Origin: Escherichia phage vB_EcoS_HASG4
Direction: 5' to 3' (one strand)
Sequence record: NC_100331.1
DNA length: 64,000 nucleotides
Shown: piece after piece, positions 3,265 through 59,310 of the stretch
Layout of the letters: each line of letters starts with the position of its first letter
Numbering within the stretch: position 1 is the first letter of the stretch
Position numbers and translations under genes: made by a program
The notes under the pieces: model-generated
Seen by the model: only the letters and a program-made list of their open reading frames with translations
Database searches by the model: none
Told to the model about the DNA's origin: nothing

Positions 3265-3320
3265 TTACTTGCACGATGCTCAAAATCTTGATATAATAGT
3301 TATATTGAATTGAGAGACAT
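3265..3320 (+). promoter_or_regulatory. strong early promoter (sigma70-type, T5-like family)
   Basis: TTGCAC-N17-TGaTATAAT with TATAAT at 3292-3297, then downstream AATTGAGAG box as at the other family members. Confidence 0.5.
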
Positions 3321-3796
3321 TAGTAAAAATTGATTTTGCTAATTTTTCTTGTTTACAATCCGCGATACGGAACAGTTAGGCTGCCCCATTAAGGGTTGTT
3401 TTAACTGTTACGTGTTAGTTTTTAAACAAATAATTAATAGAATACTTAGCGATCTACACCCCGTAGGAACCCTGGTAAGGCCTCGAAGCAACCTAGTGTG
3501 AGGTGGTTGTGAAGTGAGACGGGAAGAGTGAAAAACTCTGAGAAGTGATGACGTAAGGTATACTGCATCTAGTATGAGCTAGTACATGAAGCATTAGGTG
3601 AGCAAATCTGGCTTAGCGGCCATCCTCAAGGATTTGTGCGGTATAGTGAAGCGGCAGTGTAGCGTGAAAGTGGAAGTTGCCACCCCACTTCAGTATTTGC
3701 AATTAATTTGTTGAGAAATTGACAGTAACAGTTGTTCTATTCTTTCTGAATAGTCCTAAAGAAAACTTATTTCATTTCCAACACAGGAGTATTGTT

Positions 3797-6586
3797 GTGT
3801 TTTCAATCCTACAAGGTCATGCAGGATTTCATCGCGATTTAGCCACAGGCAATTGGCGAGAAGTTAAAGCAGAAGACTATCTTTTTGCTAAAAGATTTTC
3901 CTCAAAGCATCCTGAAGGTAAACCAGCTTCAATGCCCTTCAAGTTTGATGTAATTGACGAAATTGATCCTCAAACCCTAGTAGAAATGCTTCCTCTTATG
4001 AGACGTTTAACGTCTGACCCTCATATCGTTGCGGTACGAGGTCGATGTCTTGCACCTAAAAATAATGTGCGACGTAAGAAGGGCAACTTTAATGTATCTA
4101 ATCCAAGTCATATAATCGCAATGGATGTGGATGGTATTGTAGATACAGGAGGTTGTAACAAGTTTGATCTTGTTGGTATGGCTCGACATATTATTAGGAT
4201 GTTAAATAGTATTAGTGAGGATATGTTTCCTCTTGATGCAGGGTTTATTGCTCATGCATCATCTTCGGCTGGCCTAAAACCAGGTATCCGAATGCACTTA
4301 ATACTAGAATCTAATGTTAAAGTTACACAGGGTCAGATCAAGTTCTTATTTACATCTATCAACGAAAGTAGTAGACAAAAGTATGGCTTTGATATTGCCG
4401 ACTTAGCTTATTACTCCTCCGTACAGCTTCATTACTTTGCAGATCCTTTATTTATTGATGGTATAGTCGATCCGTTTAAAGCGGAGGGTGCTTCACGTCT
4501 GGTATTTGTTAAGGGTTCGAAGGTAAATTTGCCTAATAATCTAGTTGACTATGAAACAACTAGAGGTGAGTTTAAGGAGGAGTTCTATTCTTTACTCGAC
4601 CAAATTAAAGGTAAAAAAGCTGCCTCTGATAAAGTAGAGGAAACTATCAGCGAACTAGAAGAAGCTGAGGATGGAGTGTATCTACGTATTATTCCAAAGC
4701 TATATCACCGAGCGCTAGAGGATGGAGTAGATTTTGGTTGGCTAGAAAAAGAAATCCGCCCAGCTTTATCAGAATATATTGCAACTAAAGATAATAGCCG
4801 TAATATTCAGGATTATTTCAATAACGGACGGAAGCAGGCATTAAAAGCCTTTGTGAATAACTCTAAGCGTGAGATCCCTGAAGTATTAAAAGGTATCCCC
4901 CTTAAAAAGCTAGAAACTAATTCACTAGAGACCGACAACTTCTTGAAATTAAATACTGTACCACCAGAAGGTTATATGACTTTTGTAAAAGCAAGTCTAG
5001 GTACAGGTAAAACTACGGCGGTTGTGCGTTGGTTAGATTCAGGAGTTATTAAGGGTAATTTCTTAGCAATTACCAATACTCGAGCACTGGTATCTTCAAA
5101 TGCTAAGAAATTTAGTGCAGGACAATATGATAAGTCTGTAGATATGCTTAATTTTAAGCGTGGTGCTATTGACCGTATGTCCACAACTATTCACTCTTTG
5201 CATAAGTTCAAGAGTTTTATTGGTCAAATTGATGCAATCTTTATCGATGAATGTGATGCAGTAATGAATGACCTATTATTCGCCCCAGTTGTTAAGCAAC
5301 GTCGTGAGTGTATTCAGGTTCTTCGTGATATTCTTGCAACTGCAAAAATCATTATACTATCAGATGGTGATATTAGTGCTGAAACAATTGAAGCATATGG
5401 TTCTTTAATTGAGTTCGATAAACCAGTAGCATTTTACAATCATCACCGTAAAATGCTGTCAAAAGCTCATGCTTATGAGTTCCCTGATGAGTCCAGTATT
5501 TGGGTTGCACTTCAGACTTCTCTAGAGATGGGTGAGAAATCTATTCTAGTATCTGATTGTGGCCCTGATGAGCTTAATGAGAAGGGTATGGCACTACGTC
5601 GTAATACGGGTGCATTAGTTAAGGAAATCCATTCAAACTCTACCTCAGATGTGGATATTCGACGTATTCTGGATTACACAACTAATGAGTTAATTGATCA
5701 ACAAATTGATTGCTTATTATGTAGTCCATCCGTAACGAGTGGAGTTGACTTCAACTATTTTGATAACGTATTTGTTATTACTAGAACCAGTAATCAAGCG
5801 CCAAACATGCGTTTCCAAGCAATCAGGCGCGACCGTGGTGCTCAGAATATCTATTATTTTATTGATAAATCCACTAGTGGATTCTCCGCAGGTTCTGAAC
5901 AGTATAACATTGATGAGGGTTGGCTGGAGTTAGCACAGCAATTATACGCACGTCGCAGGGAGCTGGAATCTAGGAACTATACTAGTACTTTACGTTATTA
6001 CTTGCTTGATCAGGGTGCAACTATTGATATTTTCAGCGAAAGCTGGGGAACTATTGAAGGTGCTGGTAAAGAGTACACAGAAGAGCGAATTAAAGCTATT
6101 CTACATTCAACTCCGGATTATTGTGCTCCACGTCATGCGGATGCGTATGAAGCTAAGCTACTTCTTGTTCGCTATTATCATCTTGAGTCTATTAAAGATG
6201 TAACAGTTGAGCATGTTGAACAATATATCAAGGATAAACCGAATGATCGAGCAGCATTCTTCCATAAAATGCACGCGATGTTCTGGGAAGATATTAAGAA
6301 GTGTTCAAATGTCACTATCAAACCTTTCATAGAAGCTCTGAAAGGTAAGAAGAAAGATTTCTTCCTTAAAACAGGTCAGAGTGCTAACCCAAAATATGCG
6401 AGAATGTATCTTGGTATGATGGGTATTGGTAAGGATATGAACACTGAAAATATTGTAGACTGGTACAGAACCTATTGTAAAATCGAGTGTATGCCAATTC
6501 CTTATAAGTTCATGACTGACGAGGAAAAACATATGCATGATGAAGCAATGTCAGAGCTAGGTGCTAGAAATGACAGTGAAGAATAA
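3797..6586 (+). CDS. large ATPase, helicase-like (Walker A GTGKTT, Walker B IDECD); possible replication-initiation/origin-binding helicase
   Basis: Long ORF; likely GTG start at 3797 with AGGAG 6 nt upstream (track start 3719 is TTG). Motifs KASLGTGKTTAV and IFIDECDAV; N-terminal region has an IIAMDVDG acidic motif. Confidence 0.6.
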   Translation: MFSILQGHAGFHRDLATGNWREVKAEDYLFAKRFSSKHPEGKPASMPFKFDVIDEIDPQTLVEMLPLMRRLTSDPHIVAVRGRCLAPKNNVRRKKGNFNVSNPSHIIAMDVDGIVDTGGCNKFDLVGMARHIIRMLNSISEDMFPLDAGFIAHASSSAGLKPGIRMHLILESNVKVTQGQIKFLFTSINESSRQKYGFDIADLAYYSSVQLHYFADPLFIDGIVDPFKAEGASRLVFVKGSKVNLPNNLVDYETTRGEFKEEFYSLLDQIKGKKAASDKVEETISELEEAEDGVYLRIIPKLYHRALEDGVDFGWLEKEIRPALSEYIATKDNSRNIQDYFNNGRKQALKAFVNNSKREIPEVLKGIPLKKLETNSLETDNFLKLNTVPPEGYMTFVKASLGTGKTTAVVRWLDSGVIKGNFLAITNTRALVSSNAKKFSAGQYDKSVDMLNFKRGAIDRMSTTIHSLHKFKSFIGQIDAIFIDECDAVMNDLLFAPVVKQRRECIQVLRDILATAKIIILSDGDISAETIEAYGSLIEFDKPVAFYNHHRKMLSKAHAYEFPDESSIWVALQTSLEMGEKSILVSDCGPDELNEKGMALRRNTGALVKEIHSNSTSDVDIRRILDYTTNELIDQQIDCLLCSPSVTSGVDFNYFDNVFVITRTSNQAPNMRFQAIRRDRGAQNIYYFIDKSTSGFSAGSEQYNIDEGWLELAQQLYARRRELESRNYTSTLRYYLLDQGATIDIFSESWGTIEGAGKEYTEERIKAILHSTPDYCAPRHADAYEAKLLLVRYYHLESIKDVTVEHVEQYIKDKPNDRAAFFHKMHAMFWEDIKKCSNVTIKPFIEALKGKKKDFFLKTGQSANPKYARMYLGMMGIGKDMNTENIVDWYRTYCKIECMPIPYKFMTDEEKHMHDEAMSELGARNDSEE

Positions 6587-6803
6587 AAAATGGGAAACAA
6601 GGAAGTTTCCAGTAAAAGAGCGTAAAGTTCCTGTTTATGATACTTCGGAGAAGCTATGTAGGGTGGTACCGCACAGATTAGCTGGCATCCCTAACATATC
6701 CGAATGGTTACTTAAACAACGGAGGACTAGCGTATCCCTTCGCATAGGGTTTGAGTTAGATAAAGTATATGCTGAACTTTCTTCTTTGCTCAAGGAATCG
6801 TAA
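6561..6803 (+). CDS. hypothetical small protein (uncertain)
   Basis: ORF overlapping the end of the large ATPase gene; no motif; could be spurious. Confidence 0.2.
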   Translation: MLEMTVKNKKWETRKFPVKERKVPVYDTSEKLCRVVPHRLAGIPNISEWLLKQRRTSVSLRIGFELDKVYAELSSLLKES

Positions 6804-6804
6804 A

Positions 6805-6865
6805 AATTTATTTGCATAGTTCAAAAAATTTCTGTATAATAGATTCATAAATTTGAGAGAGGAGT
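6805..6865 (+). promoter_or_regulatory. strong early promoter (T5-like family)
   Basis: TTGCAT-N17-TATAAT (6833-6838), TG adjacent, then TTCATAAATTTGAGAGAGGAG leading into the ATG at 6872. Confidence 0.55.
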
Positions 6866-6871
6866 TTAAAT

Positions 6872-7576
6872 ATGGCCGGTTCTCGCAGAAAGAAACATAT
6901 CCATGAAATCCCGGATGAAGTCTTTAAAAAGGTTATAGAGCATCTGGAGAACGGTGGTACCAAGAAAGCAGCTTGTGAAATGATCGGCGTATCATCCAAT
7001 CCGACTATGGAAAGGATGATAGAAGAGTGGCAAGATCGCCAAATTCAAGTTGCCGAGATGAAGAAAAAGAAACGTGGTACACTCATTGAAGGTATTGAGT
7101 TGGCCAACGTTATTGAACAATATCTATCTGGTGATTCTTTTGAAGAGATTGCCGATCGTAATTACCGCTCTGTAGCAATGGTTAAATCTGTTCTGGAACG
7201 CTATGGCGCTCTGCTTCGTTTGAATGATATTGTAGATCCATTGAATCCACCAATTATTCCTGATGATGCTGTAGCAGAAGAATTTGAGGTTGGAGAACTT
7301 GTTTGGGTTCCTGGATACCAGTGTATCGGTGAAATCAAAAAAGCAATGGATAATCCTGTTGGTTGCTATCGTGTATGGCTTCTATCGGAAGGCAAACAAC
7401 AGAACGTTCATTATATGAATTATGAGCTGGCTTCTGTTAAACATCTGGAAAAGTTAGGGGTAGACGTAAAATCTCTGGGGTACAAATGGACTCGGGAAGA
7501 AGTCATTACGTTGATTAACGAAGCTGTTAAGGCTGCCTTGAAACTTGATAAAGAAAAAGGAAAACGCCGTGAGTAA
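6872..7576 (+). CDS. putative DNA-binding protein (HTH-like N-terminus)
   Basis: N-terminal GGTKKAACEMIGVSSNPTMERMIEEW looks like a helix-turn-helix; basic C-terminus. Position is consistent with a T5 D5-type DNA-binding protein (from memory, unverified). Confidence 0.45.
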   Translation: MAGSRRKKHIHEIPDEVFKKVIEHLENGGTKKAACEMIGVSSNPTMERMIEEWQDRQIQVAEMKKKKRGTLIEGIELANVIEQYLSGDSFEEIADRNYRSVAMVKSVLERYGALLRLNDIVDPLNPPIIPDDAVAEEFEVGELVWVPGYQCIGEIKKAMDNPVGCYRVWLLSEGKQQNVHYMNYELASVKHLEKLGVDVKSLGYKWTREEVITLINEAVKAALKLDKEKGKRRE

Positions 7577-7820
7577 GCTAACAGATTTGCTTAAAGATGG
7601 GGAAGTAAAGACTCTGTATCGTAGAAGCTGGGATAATGATAATACTGGCTTAGTATTACTAACTCTAGATGCTGACTCAGATGTAGTTACTCAGCATACC
7701 TGGGTAGCTGGCAATTATCCGTATAGCGAGGTTGTCACATTAACAGTATGCGAAGCTATTGCGGACGATTGGGAGGTTGCCAGCATCGATGATATGCTCG
7801 CTGTTGGCCTGGTGGAGTAA
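7569..7820 (+). CDS. hypothetical protein
   Basis: ORF; plausible GTG start at 7569 with AAGGA 8 nt upstream (track start 7545 is TTG). Confidence 0.3.
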   Translation: MSKLTDLLKDGEVKTLYRRSWDNDNTGLVLLTLDADSDVVTQHTWVAGNYPYSEVVTLTVCEAIADDWEVASIDDMLAVGLVE

Positions 7821-7835
7821 CTGCAGAAAAATTTC

Positions 7836-7895
7836 AGTTGCTTAATCCTACAATTCTTGATATAATATTCTCATAGTTTGAAAGAACTATTCTGT
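7836..7895 (+). promoter_or_regulatory. strong early promoter (T5-like family)
   Basis: TTGCTT-N17-TGaTATAAT (7861-7866), then TTCTCATAGTTTGAAAG. Confidence 0.5.
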
Positions 7896-7923
7896 TTAAT
7901 TCTTAATTAAGGAAATATAAAAT

Positions 7924-8334
7924 ATGACTACTCCAACTCAGTGGACTGATGAACTGTTCGAAAAAATGTCTTCCGAATATGTTGCTCGTATGGAGCAATT
8001 CCCAGAGGATGAACGTCCGGGTGTTAGCATGGAAATTGTTAGCGAAATTGCCCAGGAAAATGGTGTAACTCCGAACGGTTTTCGTATGAAGCTGACTAAA
8101 GCAGGTTTGTATATTAAGAAAGCTGCTGGTTCTACTTCTAAATCTAGCGCATCTACTGGAGAAAAAGCTTCCGGTGGTTCTCGTACCTCCAAAGCTCAAG
8201 CCCATGCCGATCTTCGTTCAGCATTCTCTGATGCTGGCCTAGCACCAGATTTTCTGGATGATGCAATTATCGACAAACTGACCGGTAAAGCGGCTGCTCA
8301 TCTGGCAGAAGCAATCCGAGCTATCACTAAGTAA
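7924..8334 (+). CDS. hypothetical protein with host-optimal codon usage (probably highly expressed)
   Basis: Intact ORF rich in ggt/tct/gct/cgt/ctg codons, unlike the AT-rich neighbours; Ser/Ala-rich linker. Confidence 0.5.
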   Translation: MTTPTQWTDELFEKMSSEYVARMEQFPEDERPGVSMEIVSEIAQENGVTPNGFRMKLTKAGLYIKKAAGSTSKSSASTGEKASGGSRTSKAQAHADLRSAFSDAGLAPDFLDDAIIDKLTGKAAAHLAEAIRAITK

Positions 8335-8370
8335 TTTTTAGATAAATCCACCAACAAAAGGAACACAGTT

Positions 8371-8667
8371 ATGACCAAAGCTGAAATTATCGCACAATGT
8401 GAAAAATTTGGTGAGTTTTATCTTCATTACGAGAAACTTCGTCAGAAAGGAACCACGTACCTCCAGGGTACAATGGAATTTGATCCAGCCCAAGATAAAT
8501 ATCTGGCTGAACGTATTAAACGTGAACGTATTCGTAAAGCGAAAGATGATGAAATCCTTGTCTTCTCTCGTACTAATGATAGCTTCCGTTTTATTCCTGT
8601 CGAGAAGGTCCGTCGTGTGACTAGCCTCCAATCAGAGTTAGATCGTGCTTCTCCAGTAGGCCGATAA
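8371..8667 (+). CDS. hypothetical protein
   Basis: Intact ORF followed by a terminator; basic region RIKRERIRKAKDDE. Confidence 0.45.
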   Translation: MTKAEIIAQCEKFGEFYLHYEKLRQKGTTYLQGTMEFDPAQDKYLAERIKRERIRKAKDDEILVFSRTNDSFRFIPVEKVRRVTSLQSELDRASPVGR

Positions 8668-8677
8668 GAAACCAATT

Positions 8678-8700
8678 AGCCCCTATATGGGGCTTTTTGT
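8678..8700 (+). terminator. rho-independent terminator
   Basis: AGCCCCTATATGGGGCT followed by TTTTT. Confidence 0.6.
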
Positions 8701-8717
8701 GTATTTGGGATATGTAA

Positions 8718-9026
8718 ATGAGCGAACAGGTAAATCAAAACTATGAAGGACACGTTGATGACCAGTCCATCATACTTTGGGAGAAGGAGGGAGAACAAGT
8801 AAGATTAACAGTATCTGAATTTCGTGGGAATCTATACATGGGTATTCGTTACTGGCTTCTTGATATTAATGATGAATGGTTTCCAACGAAATCTGGCTTC
8901 TCTTTTCCTTACACCCTAGAAACAACATCACAGCTTTTCTATGCGTTTACTCAGATTCTTAGCGAATCTGAGGTTTTACATGAAGTACAGAAACGAGCTG
9001 AAGAACTCAAAGCCAAGAATGCCTAG
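8718..9026 (+). CDS. putative PC4/YdbC-like ssDNA-binding protein
   Basis: Pattern RLTVSEFRGNLYMGIRYWLLD...WFPTKSGFSFP resembles the PC4-fold signature; size about 100 aa. Confidence 0.4.
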   Translation: MSEQVNQNYEGHVDDQSIILWEKEGEQVRLTVSEFRGNLYMGIRYWLLDINDEWFPTKSGFSFPYTLETTSQLFYAFTQILSESEVLHEVQKRAEELKAKNA

Positions 9027-9042
9027 TTCTTGGCTTTTTCTT
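9010..9042 (+). terminator. terminator-like hairpin overlapping the stop codon
   Basis: AGCCAAGAA-tgcctag-TTCTTGGCT followed by TTTTTC. Confidence 0.5.
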
Positions 9043-9052
9043 TATAAATGTA

Positions 9053-9110
9053 TTTGCTTTCAACTCAGTTTTGTTATATAATATTTATATAAATTAATGA
9101 GAGGGTTGCA
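9053..9110 (+). promoter_or_regulatory. strong early promoter (T5-like family)
   Basis: TTGCTT-N17-TATAAT (9077-9082), then ATTTATATAAATTAATGAGAGGG. Confidence 0.5.
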
Positions 9111-9112
9111 AA

Positions 9113-9385
9113 GTGAAAAAGATAAATATAAGTACACTTAAACCTTTTCCATATATCGGACAGCCTCTCATACTCATGTGGGAGGAAAAGATTAATGGGG
9201 AAAAGTATACTAAAACTAGAATTGGATATAAACTGATTTCACTTTATTACGAAAAAGAAGTATTAATAGCTGAAATATACTCTCCATTATCGGGCAGGCT
9301 AGTAAAAACTACATATTTGCATCTTTGCAAAAATTATACGTGGCACGGATCTACCAGACAACCCACGTACTATGAGGCAGAATAA
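9113..9385 (+). CDS. hypothetical protein
   Basis: ORF with GTG start right after the promoter/SD; no motif. Confidence 0.3.
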   Translation: MKKINISTLKPFPYIGQPLILMWEEKINGEKYTKTRIGYKLISLYYEKEVLIAEIYSPLSGRLVKTTYLHLCKNYTWHGSTRQPTYYEAE

Positions 9386-10357: not shown

Positions 10358-10407
10358 TACATAACCCTTTGCTACCCATCTACCATATCGGAATTATAAA
10401 GTGGTTA

Positions 10408-10436
10408 TTGACATTTTCGCCGCTTAGGTATATACT
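10408..10436 (+). promoter_or_regulatory. consensus sigma70 promoter
   Basis: TTGACA (10408-10413), 17-nt spacer, TATACT (10431-10436). Confidence 0.55.
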
Positions 10437-10500
10437 ATTATCATTCAGTTGAGGGATAGAAAGTTATGGCGAGGGTAAGCAAAGTTAGTTAAAATTGTAG

Positions 10501-10556
10501 TTGCTAAATGCTTAAATACTTGCTATAATATTTATATAAATTGATAAGGAAGAAAT
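10501..10556 (+). promoter_or_regulatory. strong early promoter (T5-like family, extended -10)
   Basis: TTGCTA-N17-TGcTATAAT (10524-10529), then ATTTATATAAATTGATAAGGAAG. Confidence 0.55.
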
Positions 10557-10559: not shown

Positions 10560-11339
10560 ATGAAAATCGAAATTCCAACACAATGTCCCTCTTGTGGTTC
10601 TAAGCTAGATCTTGTCAACGGACAATTATTCTGTCGTAATAAGTCCAACTGTCCAGCGCAATCAAGCAAGTTAATTGAGAACTTCTGTTCAAAAATGAAG
10701 TTAAAGGGCTTTGGCCCAAAAACTATTGAGAAGCTGGAGCTGACGAAGATTTCAGAACTATTTTACCTAACCGAAGAAGATTTGGTTAGAGCCGTGGGTA
10801 GCAAGGTTGCCGCTAAGTTAATTAGCGAATTAAATACTAAAGTTCGCGGAGACATTGACTTTGGTTCAGTTCTCGGTTCTTTAGGAATCCCTCTAATTGG
10901 AGAAGTTGCAGCAAAGAAACTATCCCAAAATTGCACTAGCTTCCATGATGTGAAGGCTGACGGCAAGGCTGGAGAAAATTACAAAGCCTGGCTAAATTCC
11001 CCACAAGGCAAGGATGTTATTGAACTACCGTGGAAATTTTCAACTGGTGTTAAGGGCACTAAAGCTGACGTCATCATTACAGATGAATTAGTTGCCCAGC
11101 CAAATGGAATCGCGGTATGTATTACCGGATCTTTGCAAGATTTTGCAAATCGAACGGATGCAACAAACTATTTAGAAGGTCTAGGATATACGGTTAAGAA
11201 ATCCGTTACCAAAGACGTCAAATACCTAATCTGTGAGGATGAATCGAAGCGTTCTTCCTCATCTTATAAGAAAGCCGAAACGAATGGGATAGAAATCCTG
11301 TCGATTAAAGAACTATTGGAGAAAAATAATAATGTCTAA
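10560..11339 (+). CDS. NAD-dependent DNA ligase, C-terminal subunit (zinc finger, HhH, BRCT-like)
   Basis: CPSCGSKLDLVNGQLFCRNKSNCPAQ is the LigA C4 zinc finger; downstream G-hairpin-G-like segments; ATG at 10560 with AAGGAAG SD. Confidence 0.75.
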   Translation: MKIEIPTQCPSCGSKLDLVNGQLFCRNKSNCPAQSSKLIENFCSKMKLKGFGPKTIEKLELTKISELFYLTEEDLVRAVGSKVAAKLISELNTKVRGDIDFGSVLGSLGIPLIGEVAAKKLSQNCTSFHDVKADGKAGENYKAWLNSPQGKDVIELPWKFSTGVKGTKADVIITDELVAQPNGIAVCITGSLQDFANRTDATNYLEGLGYTVKKSVTKDVKYLICEDESKRSSSSYKKAETNGIEILSIKELLEKNNNV

Positions 11340-12099
11340 ACTGAACTGGAACGTAGAAGGTGTAACCGAGTCTCTGAAAGCAAAAGCCACTGCTCTGGGT
11401 GTTTCTGTAATCTCTCAAGAACAAGTAGCTGCTATCGCTGCTGAACTGGCTGCTGAAACCGGCAAAGATGTTACTGCTCGCTCTGTTGGCTCTAAACTGC
11501 GTAAAGAAGGTTTTGAAGTACAAAAAGCTAACGAAGTACAGAAATCTCCGTGGACTCCTGAGCAGGAAGCTGAACTGGTTGATTTCCTGAATGCTCATGC
11601 TGGTCAGTATACCTATGCTGAAATCGCTGCTGCTGTAGCTGGTGGTCAGTTCGGTGCTAAACAGGTACAGGGTAAGATCCTGAGTCTGGAAATGACCGCT
11701 TCTGTTAAGCCAACCGAAAAAGCTGCTGCTGTTCGTTCCTTCACTCCGGATGAAGAAACTGATTTTGTTAATCAGGTTGTTGCTGGTGCTACTATTGAAG
11801 CTATCGCTGCTCACTTCGGTCGTAATATCAAGCAGATCCGTGGTAAAGCTCTGAGCCTGCTTCGTGAAGGTCGTATCGCTGCTATGCCGGTACAGGAAAC
11901 CTCAAGTGCTAAAACTCGTGAAGATCTGTTAGAAGGTCTGGATCTGGTTAACATGACTGTTGCTGAGATCGCTGAGAAAACTGGTAAATCTGAGCGCGGT
12001 GTTAAATCTATGCTGTCTCGTCGTGGTCTGGTTGCTAAGGACTATGATGGTGCCGCTAAGCGTGCTAAACTGGATGCAAAAGCTGCGGCTGCTGAATAA
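11332..12099 (+). CDS. internally repeated HTH-like protein with host-optimal codon usage
   Basis: Four repeats of an xTxAEIAxxxGxxxxxVxxKxLSxxxxG-type unit; strong bias to ctg/gct/ggt/cgt codons; followed by a terminator. Confidence 0.55.
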   Translation: MSKLNWNVEGVTESLKAKATALGVSVISQEQVAAIAAELAAETGKDVTARSVGSKLRKEGFEVQKANEVQKSPWTPEQEAELVDFLNAHAGQYTYAEIAAAVAGGQFGAKQVQGKILSLEMTASVKPTEKAAAVRSFTPDEETDFVNQVVAGATIEAIAAHFGRNIKQIRGKALSLLREGRIAAMPVQETSSAKTREDLLEGLDLVNMTVAEIAEKTGKSERGVKSMLSRRGLVAKDYDGAAKRAKLDAKAAAAE

Positions 12100-13654: not shown

Positions 13655-14541
13655 GTAGAATAACAGAACTACTTGATCTGAAAGGCATTGAATATAAAGA
13701 CACAGGTGGGGACATCCTCATCTGTTGTCTCAATCCAGATCATGACGATAAACACCCAAGTTTGCGTATTGATCCTGAAACAGGTATTATGCACTGCTTG
13801 AGTTGTGGCTTCGGTAAAGGTATACCGAGCATTTACCATTATTTTAATGAGACTCAGTACAGACAGTCCCCAAGACTATCGCAGGTACGTAAAAAGATTT
13901 CAGAGATTAGGAATGGATCAACGAATCTTGCAATTCCTGAATCTGCTTACCTTTTCGAAGGTGATTTCCGAGGTATAAGTTCTAAGACCTTGAAGAAATA
14001 TTTTGCTTTCCAACACCAAGCAGACTGGGAAGGCAGAATTGTATTCCCAATCACAGATGCTGTTGGACGCAATATCCTATTTTTGGGTCGTTCTATAAAC
14101 AGTTCTGCCCCTCCTAAATACTTAGTAAAACCAAAACAAGTTTCACCACCTATTTTCCCTGTACGATATAATACTCCAGTTCTTATTCTAGTTGAAGGTA
14201 TCTTTGATATGCTGAACCTAGAGGATAATGGTATAGACTATGCTTCTTGCTGCTTTGGTACACATCAGTTCACTTCAGATAACATTGCAGATAAGTTCAG
14301 TCCTTATATTATTGCTGGTGTAAAAGTTGTTGTTATCTTACTAGATAATGATGCTTCTGGTAATAAAGCTGCACAAGCATTGGCTAAGCTAATTCGTACA
14401 AAAACGCGTTTAACACCTGTAGTTGCTAACTTTCTCCTGCCTGAAGGTAAAGATCCAGGTGATTTAAACAAAGATGAAATTGATATGTTAGCAAAACGTA
14501 TTGAAATTTTAGTTGCTGAATCGCTTAAAGATTTGGTATAA
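13651..14541 (+). CDS. DnaG-like DNA primase (zinc ribbon plus Toprim)
   Basis: CCLNPDHDDKHPSLRIDPETGIMHCLSCGFGKG is a CHC2-type zinc motif; ILVEGIFDMLNL and LLDNDASG are Toprim-like. Confidence 0.7.
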   Translation: MSRITELLDLKGIEYKDTGGDILICCLNPDHDDKHPSLRIDPETGIMHCLSCGFGKGIPSIYHYFNETQYRQSPRLSQVRKKISEIRNGSTNLAIPESAYLFEGDFRGISSKTLKKYFAFQHQADWEGRIVFPITDAVGRNILFLGRSINSSAPPKYLVKPKQVSPPIFPVRYNTPVLILVEGIFDMLNLEDNGIDYASCCFGTHQFTSDNIADKFSPYIIAGVKVVVILLDNDASGNKAAQALAKLIRTKTRLTPVVANFLLPEGKDPGDLNKDEIDMLAKRIEILVAESLKDLV

Positions 14542-14560
14542 TATATTGGTAAGTTAGAGA
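14513..14560 (+). promoter_or_regulatory. strong early promoter (extended -10) inside the 3' end of the primase gene
   Basis: TTGCTG-N18-TGgTATAAT (14537-14542), then ATATTGGTAAGTTAGAGAAG; placed to drive the polymerase gene. Confidence 0.5.
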
Positions 14561-14603
14561 AGAAACACTGAAGTTATACTTACTTACCAAGAGGAGATTA
14601 AAT

Positions 14604-17661: not shown

Positions 17662-19010
17662 AGGTTGTTATATCTAATAAAGCCTATTTCAAGCCCGATG
17701 ATGAACTTTGGGATTATTGTAGTAAGCAAACCACTTATCACATAGAGACAATGACTAGTAAATACCCTATTATGTATAAGAATAGTGGTGTTGTTGCCAA
17801 AGAGATTAAGTGGATTCCTATTACGCGTCTGGACTTACTAGATGCTAAAGGAGTAAAATACGAATTAGTCGATAAACGCACATTAGCACCGGTAGATATA
17901 CCAAAACCGTCGTTTAAACTGCGTAAAGAAGATCAGCTTCCAATATATGAAGAATGCGATGATACCTGCATTATTAATGGTAAGCCTGGATTTGGTAAAA
18001 CTATCCTAGCCCTTGCACTTGCGTATAAATTTGGCCAGAAAACTTTGGTAATCTGTACGAATACATCCATTCGTGAAATGTGGGCGGCAGAAGTTCGTAA
18101 ATGGTTTGGGTTTGAACCGGGCATCATAGGTTCTGGGAAATACAATATTGATCCACCAATTGTAGTTAGTAATATTCAAACAGTGAATAAACATGCGAAT
18201 AATCTTTCTAAAGTATTCGGTACTGTTATAGTTGATGAAGTTCACCATTGTGTGGCTACAACTTTCACTAATTTCCTAGAAATATCCTGTGCTCGCTATA
18301 AAATTGGACTATCTGGTACACTAAAACGAAAAGATGGTTTACAAGTTATGTTCAAAGATTTCTTTGGATATAAGATATTTAGCCCACCGGTTAATAATAC
18401 TGTTGCACCTACAATCCATAGGTACTCCGTGCCTGTTGAGCTATCAGGAAACCAAAACGTACCATGGGCATTACGTGCTAATGATGTGTATAACCATCCT
18501 GAATATCGAGAGACTATTATAAACCTAGCACATTTATATGTGAATATGGGACATAAGGTACTCATTGTAAGTGATAGAACAGAGTTAATCCAAACAGTAC
18601 TAGAAGCACTATCTCAGCGAGAAGTCACAACCTATGAGATTATTGGCGCAACCCCCTTAGATGACCGATTAAAAATTCAGGAAGACATAGCAAAAGGTGG
18701 CCCTTGTGTACTTGCAGCAGCTCAAAGTATCTTCTCTGAAGGTATTTCCCTTAATGAGCTATCTTGTTTAATAATGGGAAGCCTCATTAATAATGAATCT
18801 CTCATTGAACAGCTTGCAGGCCGTGTTCAACGTATTGTCGATGGTAAACTCGACCCTATTGTTGTAGATCTAATTATGAAAGGTGGCACTGGACTAAGAC
18901 AGGCTTCTGGACGTATGGCAGTATATCGTAACAACGGGTGGAAAACTATTACTATGACTCCGGAGAAAGCAGTTCAATTAGCTAAAATTGCATTTGGCAA
19001 CAGCTCATAA
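17658..19010 (+). CDS. SF2 DNA helicase (D10-like)
   Basis: Walker A GKPGFGKT, DEVH box (IVDEVHH), helicase C-terminal domain; 450 aa, the size I recall for T5 D10. Confidence 0.75.
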   Translation: MKVVISNKAYFKPDDELWDYCSKQTTYHIETMTSKYPIMYKNSGVVAKEIKWIPITRLDLLDAKGVKYELVDKRTLAPVDIPKPSFKLRKEDQLPIYEECDDTCIINGKPGFGKTILALALAYKFGQKTLVICTNTSIREMWAAEVRKWFGFEPGIIGSGKYNIDPPIVVSNIQTVNKHANNLSKVFGTVIVDEVHHCVATTFTNFLEISCARYKIGLSGTLKRKDGLQVMFKDFFGYKIFSPPVNNTVAPTIHRYSVPVELSGNQNVPWALRANDVYNHPEYRETIINLAHLYVNMGHKVLIVSDRTELIQTVLEALSQREVTTYEIIGATPLDDRLKIQEDIAKGGPCVLAAAQSIFSEGISLNELSCLIMGSLINNESLIEQLAGRVQRIVDGKLDPIVVDLIMKGGTGLRQASGRMAVYRNNGWKTITMTPEKAVQLAKIAFGNSS

Positions 19011-19050
19011 ATGATGTATAATATATACATAAATTTGAGAGAGAAAGTTT
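19000..19050 (+). promoter_or_regulatory. strong early promoter (T5-like family)
   Basis: TGTATAAT with TATAAT at 19017-19022, then ATATACATAAATTTGAGAGAG. Confidence 0.5.
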
Positions 19051-19093: not shown

Positions 19094-19150
19094 TTGCTAA
19101 ATTCTCTCGAAATCTAGTATAATATATACATAAATTCGAGGAGAAAACAA
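19094..19150 (+). promoter_or_regulatory. strong early promoter (T5-like family)
   Basis: TTGCTA-N18-TATAAT (19118-19123), then ATATACATAAATTCGAGGAG. Confidence 0.5.
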
Positions 19151-19230
19151 AAATTAAATTCTTCGATTATGAAAAGCTATACTTACTAGCTAGAGGAAAT
19201 TCCGACCTAATTATTAAGCTATTCAAAAGA

Positions 19231-19515
19231 ATGCTTACCGAGCCTGATGCTCACCAATTGTTGGTCGGTTCCTCATTCATTTTGAATGAATCAACAATAG
19301 TTGATAATCCAAATAAATTGTCTAATAGACAACTGGCAGAATATCTAGGAATTTTAAGTCTACGAAATTATGCCGAATACAAGTTTACAAACGATCCTAG
19401 TTTGGACATACAATATGTTCCAGTATGGATACCACGTTTAGTAATCGACACTAACCCACTAATCGCAATTAACAAATCGAAATTAATCTTTAAAGAGGAA
19501 ATAAAATATGGCTAA
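19231..19515 (+). CDS. hypothetical protein
   Basis: ORF between promoter and the next gene; no motif. Confidence 0.3.
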   Translation: MLTEPDAHQLLVGSSFILNESTIVDNPNKLSNRQLAEYLGILSLRNYAEYKFTNDPSLDIQYVPVWIPRLVIDTNPLIAINKSKLIFKEEIKYG

Positions 19516-20317: not shown

Positions 20318-21295
20318 ATGAGAATATTATTTAGTGCTGATCATCATATCAAACTAGGACAAGATAAAGTTCCAAAGGAATGGCAGAAGCGTCGTTTCCT
20401 GATGCTAGGAGAACGGTTAAATGATATATTCCATAATCATAACTGTGATCTTCATATTGCTGGTGGTGATATTCTTGATGTTGCCGACCCGTCGTCAGAA
20501 GAAATAGAACTGCTTGAACAGTTCATGTCAAGACTTGACCACCCAGGTAAAATCTTTACTGGAAATCATGAAATGTTAACTAAAACGATTTCATGTCTAT
20601 ATCATTATGCAGGAGTTATTAATAAGGTAACGAGTGGTAAGTGGGAAGTAATTACCAAACCATATCGTTCCCCTGAATTTGATATTGTTCCGTATGATGA
20701 GATCCATAAATCCAAATGGAAACCGTCTGAATCAAAACTATGTTTCACGCATGTTCGTGGTGAAATCCCTCCACATGTAAAACCAGAAATTGATCTAACT
20801 AAGTATAACTGTTATGATACTGTAATTGCTGGCGATTTACATTCTTATACTAATAGCCAGACTATCGGATCTACTAGACTTCTCTACCCAGGGTCTCCAT
20901 TAACTACAACGTTCCATAGAGAACGCACAAAAGGTACAAATGGTTGCTTTATCGTTGATACCGACACATTAAAAGTAGAATGGATTGAACTAGGTGATTT
21001 ACCACAACTGATTCGTAAAACAATCGGAGCCGGTGAAGAGATGGAACCTAGTGATTATGATCGTGTAGTCTATGAAGTTACTGGTGACGTTGTTCAATTA
21101 AAGTCTATCAAAGACTCTGATTTATTAGATAAGAAGATTAACCATCGAGTTACTAAAGACGCTAAGTTAAATCTTGTTGATCTTGATATGTTAGGTGAAC
21201 TTGAACTTTACTTCCGTGAAGTCGAGAAGCTATCTCAAGGCGACATTGATAGAATCTTGGCTAGAGCTGCGAAATATGTCAAAGATTACAATTAA
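20318..21295 (+). CDS. SbcD/Mre11-like metallophosphoesterase nuclease subunit
   Basis: Calcineurin-like motifs DHH (FSADHHI), GD (AGGDILD), GNHE (FTGNHEM), GDLHS. Confidence 0.8.
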   Translation: MRILFSADHHIKLGQDKVPKEWQKRRFLMLGERLNDIFHNHNCDLHIAGGDILDVADPSSEEIELLEQFMSRLDHPGKIFTGNHEMLTKTISCLYHYAGVINKVTSGKWEVITKPYRSPEFDIVPYDEIHKSKWKPSESKLCFTHVRGEIPPHVKPEIDLTKYNCYDTVIAGDLHSYTNSQTIGSTRLLYPGSPLTTTFHRERTKGTNGCFIVDTDTLKVEWIELGDLPQLIRKTIGAGEEMEPSDYDRVVYEVTGDVVQLKSIKDSDLLDKKINHRVTKDAKLNLVDLDMLGELELYFREVEKLSQGDIDRILARAAKYVKDYN

Positions 21296-42285: not shown

Positions 42286-42771
42286 TTATCTGCGAAGTGA
42301 CCTACGTGGAGGCTGATACCTCACTGTTACATTTATTTCTGCTAAACCATATGGGGCCAGTAGACCCTCATCTGTACTAACTGATGTAATGATCATATCA
42401 GTTGCCTCACATGGGAAGGTCGATCCATTAGGTTTACTAACAGTATATTCTAAATTTCCACCTGTGTCAATAACGGTTTTTATATCCGCTACGAGTTTTT
42501 CAAGTTGCTCTTGAATGTCTGTTTTCTCTTTATCGTACACCAGGATTGGAAGTTCTAAAAACATCCACTGTTGGCCTGAAGGAAGATACTGCCCAGTTTC
42601 AGTTCCGATATGAACTGCTACATAAGGAAACTCTCGTATTTCCTCAAATTTATAAGTTTGACGAGAAACGTTTCCATATAAGTTATTAAAATATTCGTCA
42701 GGTTGAGAACCATCCATTTGTTTAGAGATTCGGTCAACCATAGCTTGTGCAATACTTGTTCTATGGTCCAT
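42286..42771 (-). CDS. tail terminator-like protein
   Basis: 161-aa ORF directly upstream of the tail tube gene. Confidence 0.45.
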   Translation of the reverse strand: MDHRTSIAQAMVDRISKQMDGSQPDEYFNNLYGNVSRQTYKFEEIREFPYVAVHIGTETGQYLPSGQQWMFLELPILVYDKEKTDIQEQLEKLVADIKTVIDTGGNLEYTVSKPNGSTFPCEATDMIITSVSTDEGLLAPYGLAEINVTVRYQPPRRSLRR

Positions 42772-52500: not shown

Positions 52501-52525
52501 ATAATCTCCTATTATAAAAATGTAT

Positions 52526-52585
52526 TTGCTTTTATCTCTCTATTTTGCTATAATAGACTCATAAATTAGAAATGGAGAGATAAAT
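52526..52585 (+). promoter_or_regulatory. strong promoter for the lipoprotein gene (T5-like family)
   Basis: TTGCTT-N17-TGcTATAAT (52549-52554), then AGACTCATAAATTAGAAATGGAGAG. Confidence 0.5.
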
Positions 52586-52852
52586 ATGAAAAAGTTTGTG
52601 ATTGCACTAGTTGCCGCAGTTATGTTATCTGGTTGTGCACCAGCCCCCAAACCATTTTGTACGGGGTTTGTAAAATCTTTTGGTGGTGCGGGAGAGGAAC
52701 ATTACGGCCTCAAGGTTCAAAAAGTTCGTATTAAGGGAGATCGCTTTCCAGTAGTACAGCTCCGTACTAAATTTGGGTGGTGGGATCTCAGTCAGTTTGA
52801 TCTTAAATATGGTGATTGTAAATTTAAACTAGAGCAATCTAATTACCTGTAA
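52586..52852 (+). CDS. llp: lipoprotein, Llp-like (receptor-blocking superinfection exclusion)
   Basis: Signal peptide plus lipobox MKKFVIALVAAVMLSGC; small size; adjacent and divergent to the RBP gene. Confidence 0.6.
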   Translation: MKKFVIALVAAVMLSGCAPAPKPFCTGFVKSFGGAGEEHYGLKVQKVRIKGDRFPVVQLRTKFGWWDLSQFDLKYGDCKFKLEQSNYL

Positions 52853-53264: not shown

Positions 53265-53455
53265 TGGAAGTGGCAGCTACACTAATAGTAATACTAGTCT
53301 GGGCAATTTTCATTGTTTCTTATACCGCGTATGTTCGCCTAAAAACTCTAGAGGCCCAGGTAAAGCAGCAACAATTTGCTATAGAAAAATTAGTAGAACT
53401 GCAACGTTGTGATAGTACCCGTATTCTGCAAATTGAGAGGGAATTAGATGTTTAG
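53261..53455 (+). CDS. small membrane protein 3 (64 aa)
   Basis: N-terminal TM helix then coiled-coil-like tail; overlaps neighbours. Confidence 0.35.
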   Translation: MMEVAATLIVILVWAIFIVSYTAYVRLKTLEAQVKQQQFAIEKLVELQRCDSTRILQIERELDV

Positions 53456-53693: not shown

Positions 53694-53858
53694 TTGGGAA
53701 ATCTCGAAATTTCATAAGATTACACATGGAGGTGTGCTCACTGCCTCCGGCGGAAATACTTAGTCTGCTAACCGCCACCCTCCGTTACTATTACCATGCT
53801 AACTGTTTCACCCTGCAACCATTTTAATTGCAAGGTGAAACAATTTCAACTTTAATTG

Positions 53859-54593: not shown

Positions 54594-54672
54594 TTGTTAC
54601 GTTCTCCATTAAAGGGATTAGATTAATTCAGCATTACCCGCTATTTATAAGCGGGTAATAATAAATTAACTA

Positions 54673-55068
54673 TTAAAGACCATAAGCCAACGCATCAGCG
54701 ATAAAACTAACATCCTCACCGGATACGCTGGAACGAATCCCGGCACAAGTATATACCTTTGCGCTGATCAATTGATCATCGAGGCAAGCGGGGCAAGGCG
54801 CAACCACTGCGAAAGCTAAACCGGATTTTACCGCGTCAATAATAATTGTTTCCTGCTTCATCGTGTCAACATAAACACCTTTTGCTTTAATATGGCTGGT
54901 TAGTTTACCTTGCATATATGCAAACGTTGTAACTTGCATTGCATCATTGAAATCTAACAATTCATCAATAACGTGCCCCGCCTCGACGTGGTAACGTTCA
55001 CCATTAGAATAAACCAGAACAATGGAAGACTGAGCGCGGTCAAATGGAATGCGATTAGATTTAGCCAT
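54673..55068 (-). CDS. hypothetical protein
   Basis: Intact ORF with the conserved leader upstream; contains HVE and PCPAC but with non-canonical spacing. Confidence 0.4.
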   Translation of the reverse strand: MAKSNRIPFDRAQSSIVLVYSNGERYHVEAGHVIDELLDFNDAMQVTTFAYMQGKLTSHIKAKGVYVDTMKQETIIIDAVKSGLAFAVVAPCPACLDDQLISAKVYTCAGIRSSVSGEDVSFIADALAYGL

Positions 55069-55105
55069 GTTTATAACTCCAGTTAGTTTAATAAGGGGGT
55101 TTAAT

Positions 55106-55363
55106 TTACTTGATAATAATCTGCATTTGATATGGCGTTAATTCACCATTTACGGGTAAATTATTATCACTCAACCACTCATAAAAAGCGTCATCATCGT
55201 CAAAGGGAACAATATCATTATCACGATAATCGACCGTAATAATCCCATCTGTATTAGTTTTGGCGGCTAGGATAGGTCCGAAGCTGTAAACTTTATCGGA
55301 TTCCATTTCATCCGGTGAAATAAATGCTTTTTCGTCCAGCGTTTTGGGTAATGTAACTTTCAT
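55106..55363 (-). CDS. hypothetical acidic protein
   Basis: 85-aa ORF, Asp-rich. Confidence 0.35.
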   Translation of the reverse strand: MKVTLPKTLDEKAFISPDEMESDKVYSFGPILAAKTNTDGIITVDYRDNDIVPFDDDDAFYEWLSDNNLPVNGELTPYQMQIIIK

Positions 55364-55420
55364 TCTAATTTAGCTCCTGTAATAGCGGCTATATTTCAAG
55401 CCGCTAGGGGAATAATTTAA

Positions 55421-57085: not shown

Positions 57086-57183
57086 GGTAATAAAACTCCA
57101 TTAAAGGGATTAAAAAACGTTTGTTATTGGCAAATATTGCCAAATATAACGCCTATTATTTGAGGCGTTATAATTTGCAATAT

Positions 57184-57399
57184 TTAACTAATCGGCATCA
57201 GGCTAGAACTAACACCACAAGCAACGGCGGCAATAAAACAAATAAGACCTAAACGCTTTGCTAACTTAGATTTACGTTTAAAATAATATGAATCCAGATC
57301 ATTTTGGAAATAAGCAAACAATAACGAGGCCGCTACAATAAATAATCCTAGAATGAGGGATTCAGTAGGGTAAAAGATCATTTTAATAACTCCAGTCAA
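57184..57399 (-). CDS. small membrane protein (two hydrophobic segments)
   Basis: 71-aa ORF between the A2-like and A1-like genes. Confidence 0.35.
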   Translation of the reverse strand: MTGVIKMIFYPTESLILGLFIVAASLLFAYFQNDLDSYYFKRKSKLAKRLGLICFIAAVACGVSSSLMPIS

Positions 57400-57437
57400 A
57401 GGAAATTATAGTGGGGAGTATTCCCCACTAATTAAAT

Positions 57438-57845
57438 TTATTCACCTGCGGCCTGTTTTACTTCATCGGCAACGCCCAATAGTTGCGCCACGGCGTCCAA
57501 CGTTTCTAATTTTGCGCTTTCCAGTGATGCCAGATCGTCAACGTCTTTGATAATACCGGAATCGATGGCATGTTTTGCAATAACGCGCACATAATGCGCT
57601 TTGCGGATAGAACTGCCGCCGCCAACCTTGCGAGGTTTATCGCTTTTCTGATACGCTTTCGCGCTGGTCAATTTTGAGCGAACGGACACGGGAGAAGCCG
57701 CACCTACTGCTTTCGCGATCTCTTTCAAGCCGTCGCTATTTGCGAAATCTAAACCGTTTTCATTGATTAGCTGCTGATACATGGTAACAGCCTGCTGGGT
57801 GTTTTCTTCATTCCAAGAAAATTTTACGGTTTTAACGTTAGTCAT
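57438..57845 (-). CDS. A2: A2-like pre-early protein
   Basis: 135-aa ORF immediately upstream of the A1-like gene; size and position match T5 A2 as I recall it. Confidence 0.45.
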   Translation of the reverse strand: MTNVKTVKFSWNEENTQQAVTMYQQLINENGLDFANSDGLKEIAKAVGAASPVSVRSKLTSAKAYQKSDKPRKVGGGSSIRKAHYVRVIAKHAIDSGIIKDVDDLASLESAKLETLDAVAQLLGVADEVKQAAGE

Positions 57846-57943
57846 GGTAAAAACTCCTATTAGTTTAATTTAAGGGATAAGATTAACATAATGTTAATCG
57901 TTATATACCCCGAACTACTGGGGTATATAAAGTTAACACTAAA

Positions 57944-58195
57944 TTACAAAACAGCTTCCCATTTTTCGTTGCGTTGAACAACCTTTACAACATCGCCGGA
58001 TTTAACGCGAACGCTAAAAACGGTTTTGCCGTTGTTACTGCGTTCCGTTTCAGCGTATACCGCGTCGATTGTATCGAACGGCATAAGCGCCGCACCTTTA
58101 ATGCGTTCGGCCTTTCCGGTTAACTCATCCGTTTTAGTAACGAAAGGAATAAAAACGGATTGACCAATTTTTGGCGCGGTAATAACGTTTTGCAT
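57944..58195 (-). CDS. hypothetical protein
   Basis: 83-aa ORF with the conserved leader and AGGAG SD. Confidence 0.4.
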   Translation of the reverse strand: MQNVITAPKIGQSVFIPFVTKTDELTGKAERIKGAALMPFDTIDAVYAETERSNNGKTVFSVRVKSGDVVKVVQRNEKWEAVL

Positions 58196-58422
58196 AGTAT
58201 AAACTCCTAGTTATTTGGGGATTATTCCGCATTACCTGCTAGAAGGTAGCAGGTAATAAGTAACAATCCGCTCGCCAGTTTAACCAATTTAAAGAACTCC
58301 ACGTAGGCCGCTATATCCCAGTTAGGGGGCGGGATGCATTATGGTAAGCACCGACCGTCAAATTTTATCAAGTTATCGCTCTTATCGAACTGAGTACATC
58401 TTAAAACCTATCGGCTAGGTTG

Positions 58423-58626
58423 TCAAACGGTTTTTTGCAATTTTTTATGATTTTCTTTCAAGTCAATCATAATATTTCGCCAGATCATTTCTAGACCTTG
58501 CTGGCGACCTCTCTTGTACTGCGTGAATCGGTATTTTACCGATCTTTGCGCTACTGTCAACAAATTTTTTGTTTTGCTATCTAGTGCCTTAATAGGCTTG
58601 CCAGTGATCAATAAAGTTTGTTTCAT
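58423..58626 (-). CDS. hypothetical small basic protein (uncertain)
   Basis: 67-aa ORF inside the large intergenic region; weak SD. Confidence 0.2.
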   Translation of the reverse strand: MKQTLLITGKPIKALDSKTKNLLTVAQRSVKYRFTQYKRGRQQGLEMIWRNIMIDLKENHKKLQKTV

Positions 58627-59256
58627 ATCGTCGATTCCTTATAATAGATAAGTTTACCGCCGATAGGCTTTAAGATGTACCCAATTTTTAAAGAGCGTGG
58701 CGGTAAACTTCCCGCCGTGTAGTTCGTCATTGCCGCCCTACGTGATAAATAATAGGGGATTCCCGAAAATGGCGCAACCTTATTTTTGTAAAGAAACGTA
58801 AAGACAAAATTCACCGGACGGCGTGCGGTGACGGCCTAAAATTAAAAGAAACGGGCGCGCGAATACCACAAAACAAAGCAAATAGGCAAGTAATTTTTTC
58901 ATTTATATTTGCTTTCCCCTACTTGACAAAATCTAAAAAGCTCGTGGTAGCGATAAACGGCTTATCCCCTTATGATGGGATGGCTAAAAACTTTATTGCG
59001 TTCTAGGGCGTTTTAGGCGGCTCATTTTCGATTTAACAAATATCTAACAAAAGCAAAATTGAAAAATAGTTGAAAAAGGTCTTGACTTTTAAAAATCAAG
59101 GGGCATTGCATTAATTTATAAAATAAATTAATTGACTTTTATTTGTTGTTGTGTATTAGAAAGATAGCAAACTAATAATTACTAGAATGATAATCATGCT
59201 GGTGGATTGTAACGGCTTAAATTATTAGCAGACTACTAATCCCGGAAAATCTCATT

Positions 59257-59310
59257 AGCCAACTAACTGTTTCATAAGTTATAATATACATATAAATTAA
59301 TGAGAAATAA
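59257..59310 (+). promoter_or_regulatory. promoter-like element of the T5 family (weak -35)
   Basis: GTTATAAT with TATAAT at 59280-59285, then ATACATATAAATTAATGAGAAA. Confidence 0.35.

Follow-up and report, generated by a model that had tools for sequence, protein, structure and literature searches.

The 64,000-nucleotide (nt) stretch of Escherichia phage vB_EcoS_HASG4 analysed here (sequence record NC_100331.1; hereafter the window) contains ten sites that are very probably promoters of the early class in a T5-like phage, used by the Escherichia coli sigma-70 RNA polymerase in its unmodified form. The conserved box just downstream of their -10 hexamers is best read as a composite of the discriminator, an initial transcribed sequence (ITS) optimised for promoter escape and a ribosome-binding site. 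An earlier note, made from the letters alone, had described the sites as at least ten near-identical strong promoters with an AT-rich downstream box, matching the early promoters of T5. All ten lie on the + strand where that note placed them, each with a perfect TATAAT followed by A, and nine align with promoters annotated in the T5 record AY543070, our reference for orthology, several of them base for base. The promoter family is already known, since T5 annotates the orthologs and a consensus has been published for phage AKFV33; a reader of raw sequence can evidently recover a textbook regulatory family. By-products of the analysis are an account of the box as discriminator, ITS and ribosome-binding site, a probable correction to the start of a T5.125-like gene, and an apparently undescribed leader RNA before a putative origin-binding helicase gene.

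The window belongs to a T5-like coliphage (Demerecviridae, Tequintavirus). Against Escherichia phage vB_EcoS_EASG3 (MK373799.1), identity is 100% over 3000-9000 and 18000-40000 and 98.6% over 40000-64000, with small indels beyond about 22,070. The window spans EASG3 from about 56.5 kb through the right end of that genome. It includes the right terminal repeat, the right-hand early (replication) region and, encoded on the opposite strand, the late region. In the EASG3 record terminators are annotated but promoters are not, so that our sites supply its promoter annotation. ARAGORN found no tRNA or tmRNA gene, and Rfam at gathering thresholds gave zero matches over the whole length of the window.

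Eight of the sites sit before replication or early genes on the + strand; the site at 59257, in the pre-early terminal repeat, is the exception. The +1 register was taken throughout from the N25 start defined in PMC7472727. The ten sites are:

3245-3320, +: site 3265, early promoter, ortholog of the unnamed T5 promoter (58999-59073) upstream of T5.108; A-tract, -35 TTGCAC at 3269, TGA-TATAAT at 3292, predicted +1 about 3304; degenerate box ATTGAATTGAGAGA; a leader of about 490 nt, then a T5.108-like helicase gene (3797)
6788-6863, +: site 6805, early promoter, ortholog of T5 P-N25; -35 TTGCAT at 6812, TATAAT at 6835, +1 the A at 6847 (start position after PMC7472727); ITS ATAAATTTGAGAGAGGAG, its GAGG being the Shine-Dalgarno sequence; ATG of a D2-like gene at 6872
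7814-7889, +: site 7836, early promoter, ortholog of T5 P-N26; -35 TTGCTT at 7838, TGA-TATAAT at 7861, +1 about 7873; variant ITS AUAGUUUGAAAGAACUAU with a hairpin at the extreme 5' end; D3-like gene at 7924
9030-9105, +: site 9053, early promoter, ortholog of the unnamed T5 promoter upstream of ligA; -35 TTGCTT at 9054, TATAAT at 9077, +1 about 9089; box exact; GTG start at 9113
10477-10552, +: site 10501, early promoter, ortholog of T5 P-K28a; -35 TTGCTA at 10501, TGC-TATAAT at 10524, +1 about 10536; box exact; ligB start at 10560
14490-14565, +: site 14513, early promoter 'Ppol' of the DNA polymerase gene, ortholog of the unnamed T5 promoter upstream of pol; -35 TTGCTG at 14513, 18-nt spacer, TGG-TATAAT at 14537; variant ITS GGUAAGUU with a 5'-terminal hairpin
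18970-19045, +: site 19000, early promoter, ortholog of T5 P31A; -35 TTGGCA at 18994, within the 3' end of the D10 helicase gene, TATAAT at 19017, +1 about 19029; top box match, followed by a stable hairpin and no start codon
19071-19146, +: site 19094, early promoter, ortholog of T5 P31B; -35 TTGCTA at 19094, 18-nt spacer, TATAAT at 19118, +1 about 19130; GAGGAG as Shine-Dalgarno sequence of an open reading frame starting at ATT 19153
52502-52577, +: site 52526, early-type promoter of an Llp/Cor-like lipoprotein gene, ortholog of the unnamed T5 promoter upstream of llp; -35 TTGCTT at 52526, TGC-TATAAT at 52549, +1 about 52561; divergent from the receptor-binding protein gene
59233-59308, +: site 59257, box-bearing site in the right terminal repeat; TTAGCC at the -35 position, TATAAT at 59280, ATAAATTAATGAGAAA downstream

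Relation to T5 and other phages

The T5 promoters N25, N26 and K28a have been characterised in vitro. P-N25 is a standard model for studies of promoter escape and the basis of the commercial 'T5 promoter' expression vectors. T7 A1, lambda PL/PR and the T4 early promoters are also used by the host sigma-70 holoenzyme; their hexamers are close to consensus, their upstream regions are rich in A and T, and T7 A1 shares with the family described here a purine-rich initial transcribed region. To our knowledge, a family-wide conserved ATAAATT at +1 to +7 has not been described for any of these.

Over the 75 nt annotated in T5, the K28a, pol, P31A and P31B sequences are identical in the two phages, and N26 is identical from the -35 hexamer onwards. 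The sites share with their T5 counterparts the orthologous positions, the architecture, the ATAAATT at +1 and the purine run. They differ from T5 in the spacer of the P-N25 ortholog and in the llp promoter, which has diverged and whose gene product is a Cor-like rather than a T5-Llp-like lipoprotein. In T5, the start of 'Ppol' was mapped by primer extension and the promoter behaves as early in vivo, all known early promoters carry ATATT in the discriminator, and the N25 start is the A of CATAAATT (PMC7472727). For AKFV33, 32 sigma-70 promoters were reported with TTGCTw, 17-18 bp, TATAATA, AAAAATT at -43 and TAAATT at +1 (Niu et al. 2012, PMC3326045), which is practically the consensus derived in the earlier note. 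That paper gives the consensus only; the overlap with the Shine-Dalgarno sequence, the class specificity and the long-leader variants described below are not noted there. For promoter activity, early timing and the effect on escape we rely on this literature and on the T5 orthologs.

Definition of the promoter family

The pattern TTGC-N19-20-TATAAT occurs eight times in the window, always on the + strand and at sites of the earlier note, compared with 0.73 +/- 0.81 times in dinucleotide shuffles; none of 100 shuffles reached eight. By itself, TATAAT is no more frequent than chance would give (51 and 46 copies on the two strands, where about 52 are expected on each), which places the signal in the combination of elements. 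A generic sigma-70 consensus scan was uninformative, returning 57 promoter-like sites against 58.6 in shuffles, and only the family-specific pattern was significant. The TTGC(T/A)N hexamer given in the earlier note describes eight sites as far as TTGC is concerned and fails at 19000 (TTGGCA) and 59257 (TTAGCC); at 19000, TTGGCA-17-TATAAT still matches 11 of 12 consensus positions. The extended -10 element TGn, said to be frequent, is canonical (TG at -15/-14) in half of the sites (3265, 7836, 10501, 14513 and 52526), while 6805 and 19000 have a TG directly against the hexamer, out of register; TGn is thus not family-defining. AAAAT(T/G)T directly precedes the -35 hexamer at nine sites and is weak at 59257 (GGAAAATCTCAT).

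The downstream part is more uniform. The exact TATAATAnnnnnATAAATT is present at seven sites, and at the same number ATAAATT occupies +1 to +7 without change; at 3265, 7836 and 14513 the box described earlier is degenerate. In a leave-one-out test with a weight matrix of the 22 nt after the hexamer, the kind of scan the earlier note had proposed, seven of the ten sites rank first among about 128,000 positions, and the others rank 11 (hexamer at 3292), 9 (14537) and 111 (7861). A matrix trained on 15 sites outside the window also recovers seven of the ten, each with TATAAT immediately before the match. The box-bearing set within the window is exactly the ten sites of the earlier note. Two minus-strand matrix matches were treated as chance: one at 20325 corresponds to the beginning of the D12 coding sequence in reverse, and one at 42659 comes without a -10 hexamer.

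The description 'near-identical' was overstated. Over 71-nt units, mean pairwise identity is 54% (range 38-68%), falling to 40% in the spacer and rising to 70% over the -10 and downstream part, which indicates a common consensus rather than repeats. Upstream of P-K28a and in tandem with it lies an ortholog of T5 P-K28b (10388-10462, +; TTGACA-17-TATACT; 100% identical to T5), a promoter of a different type with a partial box that was absent from the earlier list.

Adding the rest of EASG3 brings the family to 26 members genome-wide, with 15 on the minus strand, running with the left-arm early genes, and one about 100 bp left of the window. All 26 are co-oriented with early genes. In the logo of the 26 members, ATAAATT at +1 to +7 carries 1.1-1.7 bits per position, equal to the -10 hexamer, and G11 and A12 carry about 1.1-1.3 bits.

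The sites are nearly unchanged in 30 close T5-like genomes. Klebsiella phage Sugarland, whose D10 helicase is 68% identical to that of the window, keeps the promoters before ligB and inside the primase 3' end before pol as well as the two tandem promoters that follow D10, with hexamers and box preserved and spacers diverged. A metagenomic relative with 40% identity in D10 has TTGC/TATAAT promoters with A/T-rich discriminators but lacks the ATAAATT..GAGAG box.

Function of the downstream box

The box holds a fixed register to the -10 hexamer. In 17 of the 26 members a start codon follows at +20 to +27, and there GAGAG(G) is the Shine-Dalgarno sequence. ATAAATT is also kept where no start codon follows, at P31A, at 59257 and at the promoters before tRNA genes (EASG3 31730 and 41460), so that the box must be more than a translation signal. 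Changes to the ITS are known to affect promoter output: the native N25 ITS allows fast escape, and the complementary-type N25anti is about 10-fold worse (PMC12464699). An effect of the N25 ITS of more than 10-fold in vivo is credited to Kammerer 1986 in PMC5961368.

The box distinguishes the early class. The following late and pre-early promoters of the window, all orthologs of T5 promoters with hexamers of their own, lack ATAAATT:

35333-35259, -: late P-G25 ortholog, 100% identical to T5, without the box
42490-42416, -: late P-J5 ortholog, without the box
58570-58508, -: pre-early P-H22 ortholog, without the box
59710-59788, +: pre-early P11 ortholog, without the box

The leader of the P-G25 ortholog, ATTAAAGAGGAGAAATTAACTATGAGA, is the same as the ribosome-binding site called 'RBSII' in commercial expression vectors with a T5 promoter.

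Transcripts with short leaders are predicted to be essentially unstructured, with 50-nt folds of -0.1 kcal/mol (start at 9089) and -3.0 kcal/mol (52561). The transcript from 7873 (D3 mRNA) is predicted to begin at +1 with a 7-bp hairpin, AUAGUUU...GAACUAU (window 7873-7890, +). That from 14548 (pol mRNA) also folds from +1, with -9.1 kcal/mol and the stem GGUAAGU...ACUUACC (window 14548-14588, +), and that from 3304 folds from +9 with -12.3 kcal/mol (z = -3.5). These three are exactly the sites with degenerate boxes. The P31A transcript has a hairpin from +19 with -14 kcal/mol (z = -5.6). The hairpins predicted at +1 of the pol and D3 mRNAs might act in mRNA stability or as a translational operator. 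The sequence of the pol 5' hairpin is conserved in Sugarland.

Taken together, a family unit consists of TTGCTw at -35, a 17-18 bp spacer and a perfect TATAAT with a following A, with TGn in half of the cases. An A-tract (AAAAATT) at about -43 presumably contacts the C-terminal domains of the alpha subunits, as is the case for UP elements. The discriminator is A/T-rich (ATATT-like), with the start at an A 7 nt after the hexamer, and the box combines this discriminator with AUAAAUU at +1 to +7 and the purine run GAGAG(G) at about +10 to +17. Such an A/T-rich and purine-rich ITS favours rapid escape, as experiments on P-N25, the ortholog of site 6805, have shown. In most members the purine run would double as Shine-Dalgarno sequence, so that promoter and ribosome site form one compact cassette whose AU-rich leader is unstructured. 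Where leaders are long, the box is relaxed, and the transcripts are predicted to bear stable hairpins at or near the 5' end. Because the box is specific to the early class, it is also a plausible handle for the early-to-late switch. Motif statistics, orthology, class specificity, register to the -10 hexamer and start-codon distance are results of this analysis; the translational, mRNA-stability and regulatory roles of the box are those we infer.

Several observations weigh against this reading. Three sites (3265, 7836 and 14513) have degenerate boxes, and an exact ATAAATT is found in 14 of 17 short-leader but only 5 of 9 long-leader members. The transcriptional, translational and regulatory weights of the box are inseparable by sequence analysis, and the activity of the ten sites is itself deduced from their orthology to T5. 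Site 59257 has neither a usable -35 element (no TTG) nor TGn, no open reading frame directly follows it, and it may not be a simple constitutive promoter.

Alternative explanations

The discriminator and +1 to +7 could mainly be a regulatory target at which a phage factor, such as the RNA polymerase-bound gpT5.026 or the DNA-binding protein D5, shuts off early transcription when the phage switches from early to late. The confinement of the box to early promoters, with late and pre-early orthologs of the same window lacking it, would fit such a role, as would its retention in Sugarland and absence from the 40%-identity relative. In T5, gpT5.026 weakens contacts of RNA polymerase at -5/+2 of N25; when it is lost, early transcripts increase and late ones decrease (PMC7472727). 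Its effects in vitro are two-fold at most, however, and the mutant still switches (PMC7472727). No factor is known to read +1 to +7, and a mere need of the early genes for maximal constitutive strength would predict the same class specificity equally well. We therefore regard this explanation of the box as unlikely, although a class-specific regulatory contribution through gpT5.026 or D5, alongside the composite function, is possible.

Somewhat less likely again is a box that acts purely at the mRNA level, as an unstructured AU-rich leader with a Shine-Dalgarno sequence that serves translation initiation and protection of the 5' end and has no promoter function. The position of the start codon in 17 of 26 members, with GAGAG(G) at Shine-Dalgarno distance, and the weak or absent folding of short leaders are as this explanation predicts. 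The gene behind P31B probably begins right after the box, at ATT 19153, and the most degenerate boxes (3265, 7836 and 14513) belong to long-leader members. The explanation does not account for an ATAAATT in fixed register to the -10 hexamer that is maintained at P31A, at 59257 and at the tRNA-gene promoters EASG3 31730 and 41460. In addition, changes in the N25 ITS have an effect of about 10-fold on escape and on strength in vivo that does not depend on translation (PMC12464699, PMC5961368).

That the similarity merely reflects a promoter cassette spread by duplication or recombination as a mobile regulatory module, with no selection on the box, is highly improbable: three relatives do show a break of homology inside the ITS of site 3265 (window 3308) that joins a different upstream gene and promoter, a fourth (L096) has both promoters in tandem, and P31A/P31B and K28b/K28a are tandem pairs, but spacers and flanks are alike only in composition (40% identity against 70% in the functional part), functional positions are invariant between T5-like phages and Sugarland while spacers have diverged, which speaks for purifying selection and not recent copying, and the alignments suggest that a unit groups with its counterparts at the orthologous position rather than with the other units of its genome.

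The composite of discriminator, ITS and ribosome-binding site is accordingly the reading we retain.

The site in the terminal repeat

Site 59257, the one weak member of the ten, lies between divergent pre-early operons. Box and TATAAT place it in the family; a proper -35 hexamer and a T5 annotation are missing, the T5 counterpart (left terminal repeat, about 6050-6100) having no annotated promoter. Of 30 T5-like terminal-repeat loci, 27 nevertheless have it, including loci in which identity of the neighbouring protein is as low as 54-58%, and TATAAT and ATAAATTA are invariant in these loci. Conserved in relatives and not annotated in T5, the site looks less well known than the rest of the family.

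The -35 position is occupied by TTAGCCAACTAACT, nearly invariant and replaced by TTAGCTAACTAACT in three loci, and a similar TTAGCAGACTA lies about 28 nt upstream of it (window 59227-59310, +). A search for TTAGCCAACTAACT across the window found it to be unique. The two elements look like a pair of protein-binding sites that would overlap a -10-only promoter.

The site is directed into an inverted-repeat region with paired DnaA boxes. Each of the inverted repeats, 59396-59526 and 63194-63324, has two DnaA boxes 3 nt apart. Perfect boxes TTATCCACA are found at 59420, 59432, 63231 and 63292, and boxes with a single mismatch are at chance across the window. DnaA-box repeats of the form IRC-spacer-IRD and IRD'-spacer-IRC' have been linked to the injection stop signal by Davison (bioRxiv 10.1101/866236). 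The repeats of the window correspond to this injection-stop region and are thus already described. A speculative and unlikely extension, made of two linked readings, is that the discriminator and ATAAATT, beyond optimising escape and translation, time the early class through a phage factor and that 59257 is a factor-dependent promoter firing into the DnaA-box region implicated in the two-step DNA injection of T5. The second reading would be favoured by the conservation of 59257 in relatives, its missing annotation in T5 and the TTAGCCAACTAACT and TTAGCAGACTA elements.

A structured leader RNA behind site 3265

Between site 3265 and the T5.108-like helicase gene are about 490 nt without credible open reading frames (window 3305-3796, +). 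The leader is 480-610 nt long in all 33 related loci. Its centre (about 3411-3724) gives no BLAST alignment between genomes that are otherwise 90-98% identical; despite this divergence the exact GCTTAGCGGC is kept in every related locus, and the hairpin GGCUUAGCGGCC (3610-3621) is invariant in 33 of 33, Sugarland included.

RNAalifold, applied to 10 sequences representing four sequence types, predicted four helices:

3449-3459 with 3657-3665, +
3566-3570 with 3596-3600, +
3602-3609 with 3630-3637, +
3610-3613 with 3618-3621, +

In this structure 95.7% of cells are paired, compared with 34-48% when the partners are slid; compensatory changes occur in 17 of 26 pairs (3-7 when slid), and the covariation score is 0.595 (0.06-0.16 when slid). 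Two loci with the most divergent leader type (L095 and L102) were excluded from the covariation count because MAFFT misaligned them. Frequent G-U pairs point to the RNA of the + strand. Rfam 15 gave no match for the leader, with noise only (E at least 0.14) over 3250-3850, and a limited literature search found nothing relevant. The core of this predicted structured 5' leader, 3449-3665, looks like an undescribed element.

A mosaic junction was observed in the three relatives mentioned above (L073, L079 and L098). Their sequence (about position 1012), compared with window 2999-3308, departs from it inside the ITS of site 3265, at GAGAGACATT, and the upstream gene is a different one with its own early-type promoter. 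Because homology breaks inside the ITS, the shared box may, on this anecdotal basis, serve as a recombination junction. In T4-type phages the PeSL cassettes, reportedly described by Arbiol and colleagues in 2010, are said to be repeated early-promoter units at module boundaries and possible recombination junctions. The junction at window 3308 invites comparison with them as a lead only; unlike PeSL cassettes, the units of the window come without an associated stem-loop terminator and without evidence of mobility.

Genes behind individual promoters

The pol promoter overlaps the end of the primase gene, whose stop codon TAA (14539-14541) lies inside TATAAT, in agreement with the copy placed by the earlier note in the primase 3' end. 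Its assignment of another copy to the late-side llp gene holds in substance. The open reading frame behind site 52526 (52586-52852) encodes a lipoprotein with signal peptide and lipobox, 30% identical to T5 Llp, that matches the Cor superinfection-exclusion family with E = 1.8e-26. T5 has an annotated promoter there too, divergently oriented to the receptor-binding protein gene, and T5 Llp is known to be expressed early although its gene lies in the late region (Decker 1994).

The open reading frame downstream of P31B (19153-19515, +) is T5.125-like. Its probable first codon, ATT 19153, comes 23 nt downstream of the P31B start and follows the GAGGAG of the box, while the gene is annotated from ATG 19231. 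The 120-residue product read from ATT 19153 matches phrog_4258 over positions 2-120 of 120. In four relatives (L026, L027, L036 and L037) an ATG stands at the position of this ATT, and changes in the extension are mostly synonymous. The gene therefore probably starts at ATT 19153 and not at ATG 19231, and this ATT start looks less well known than the promoter family.

In Sugarland (L034, about 11530-11600), a third promoter follows the P31A/P31B pair, with TATAAT only 4 nt before the ATG of the T5.125-like open reading frame. This arrangement suggests that the transcript would be a leaderless or near-leaderless mRNA.

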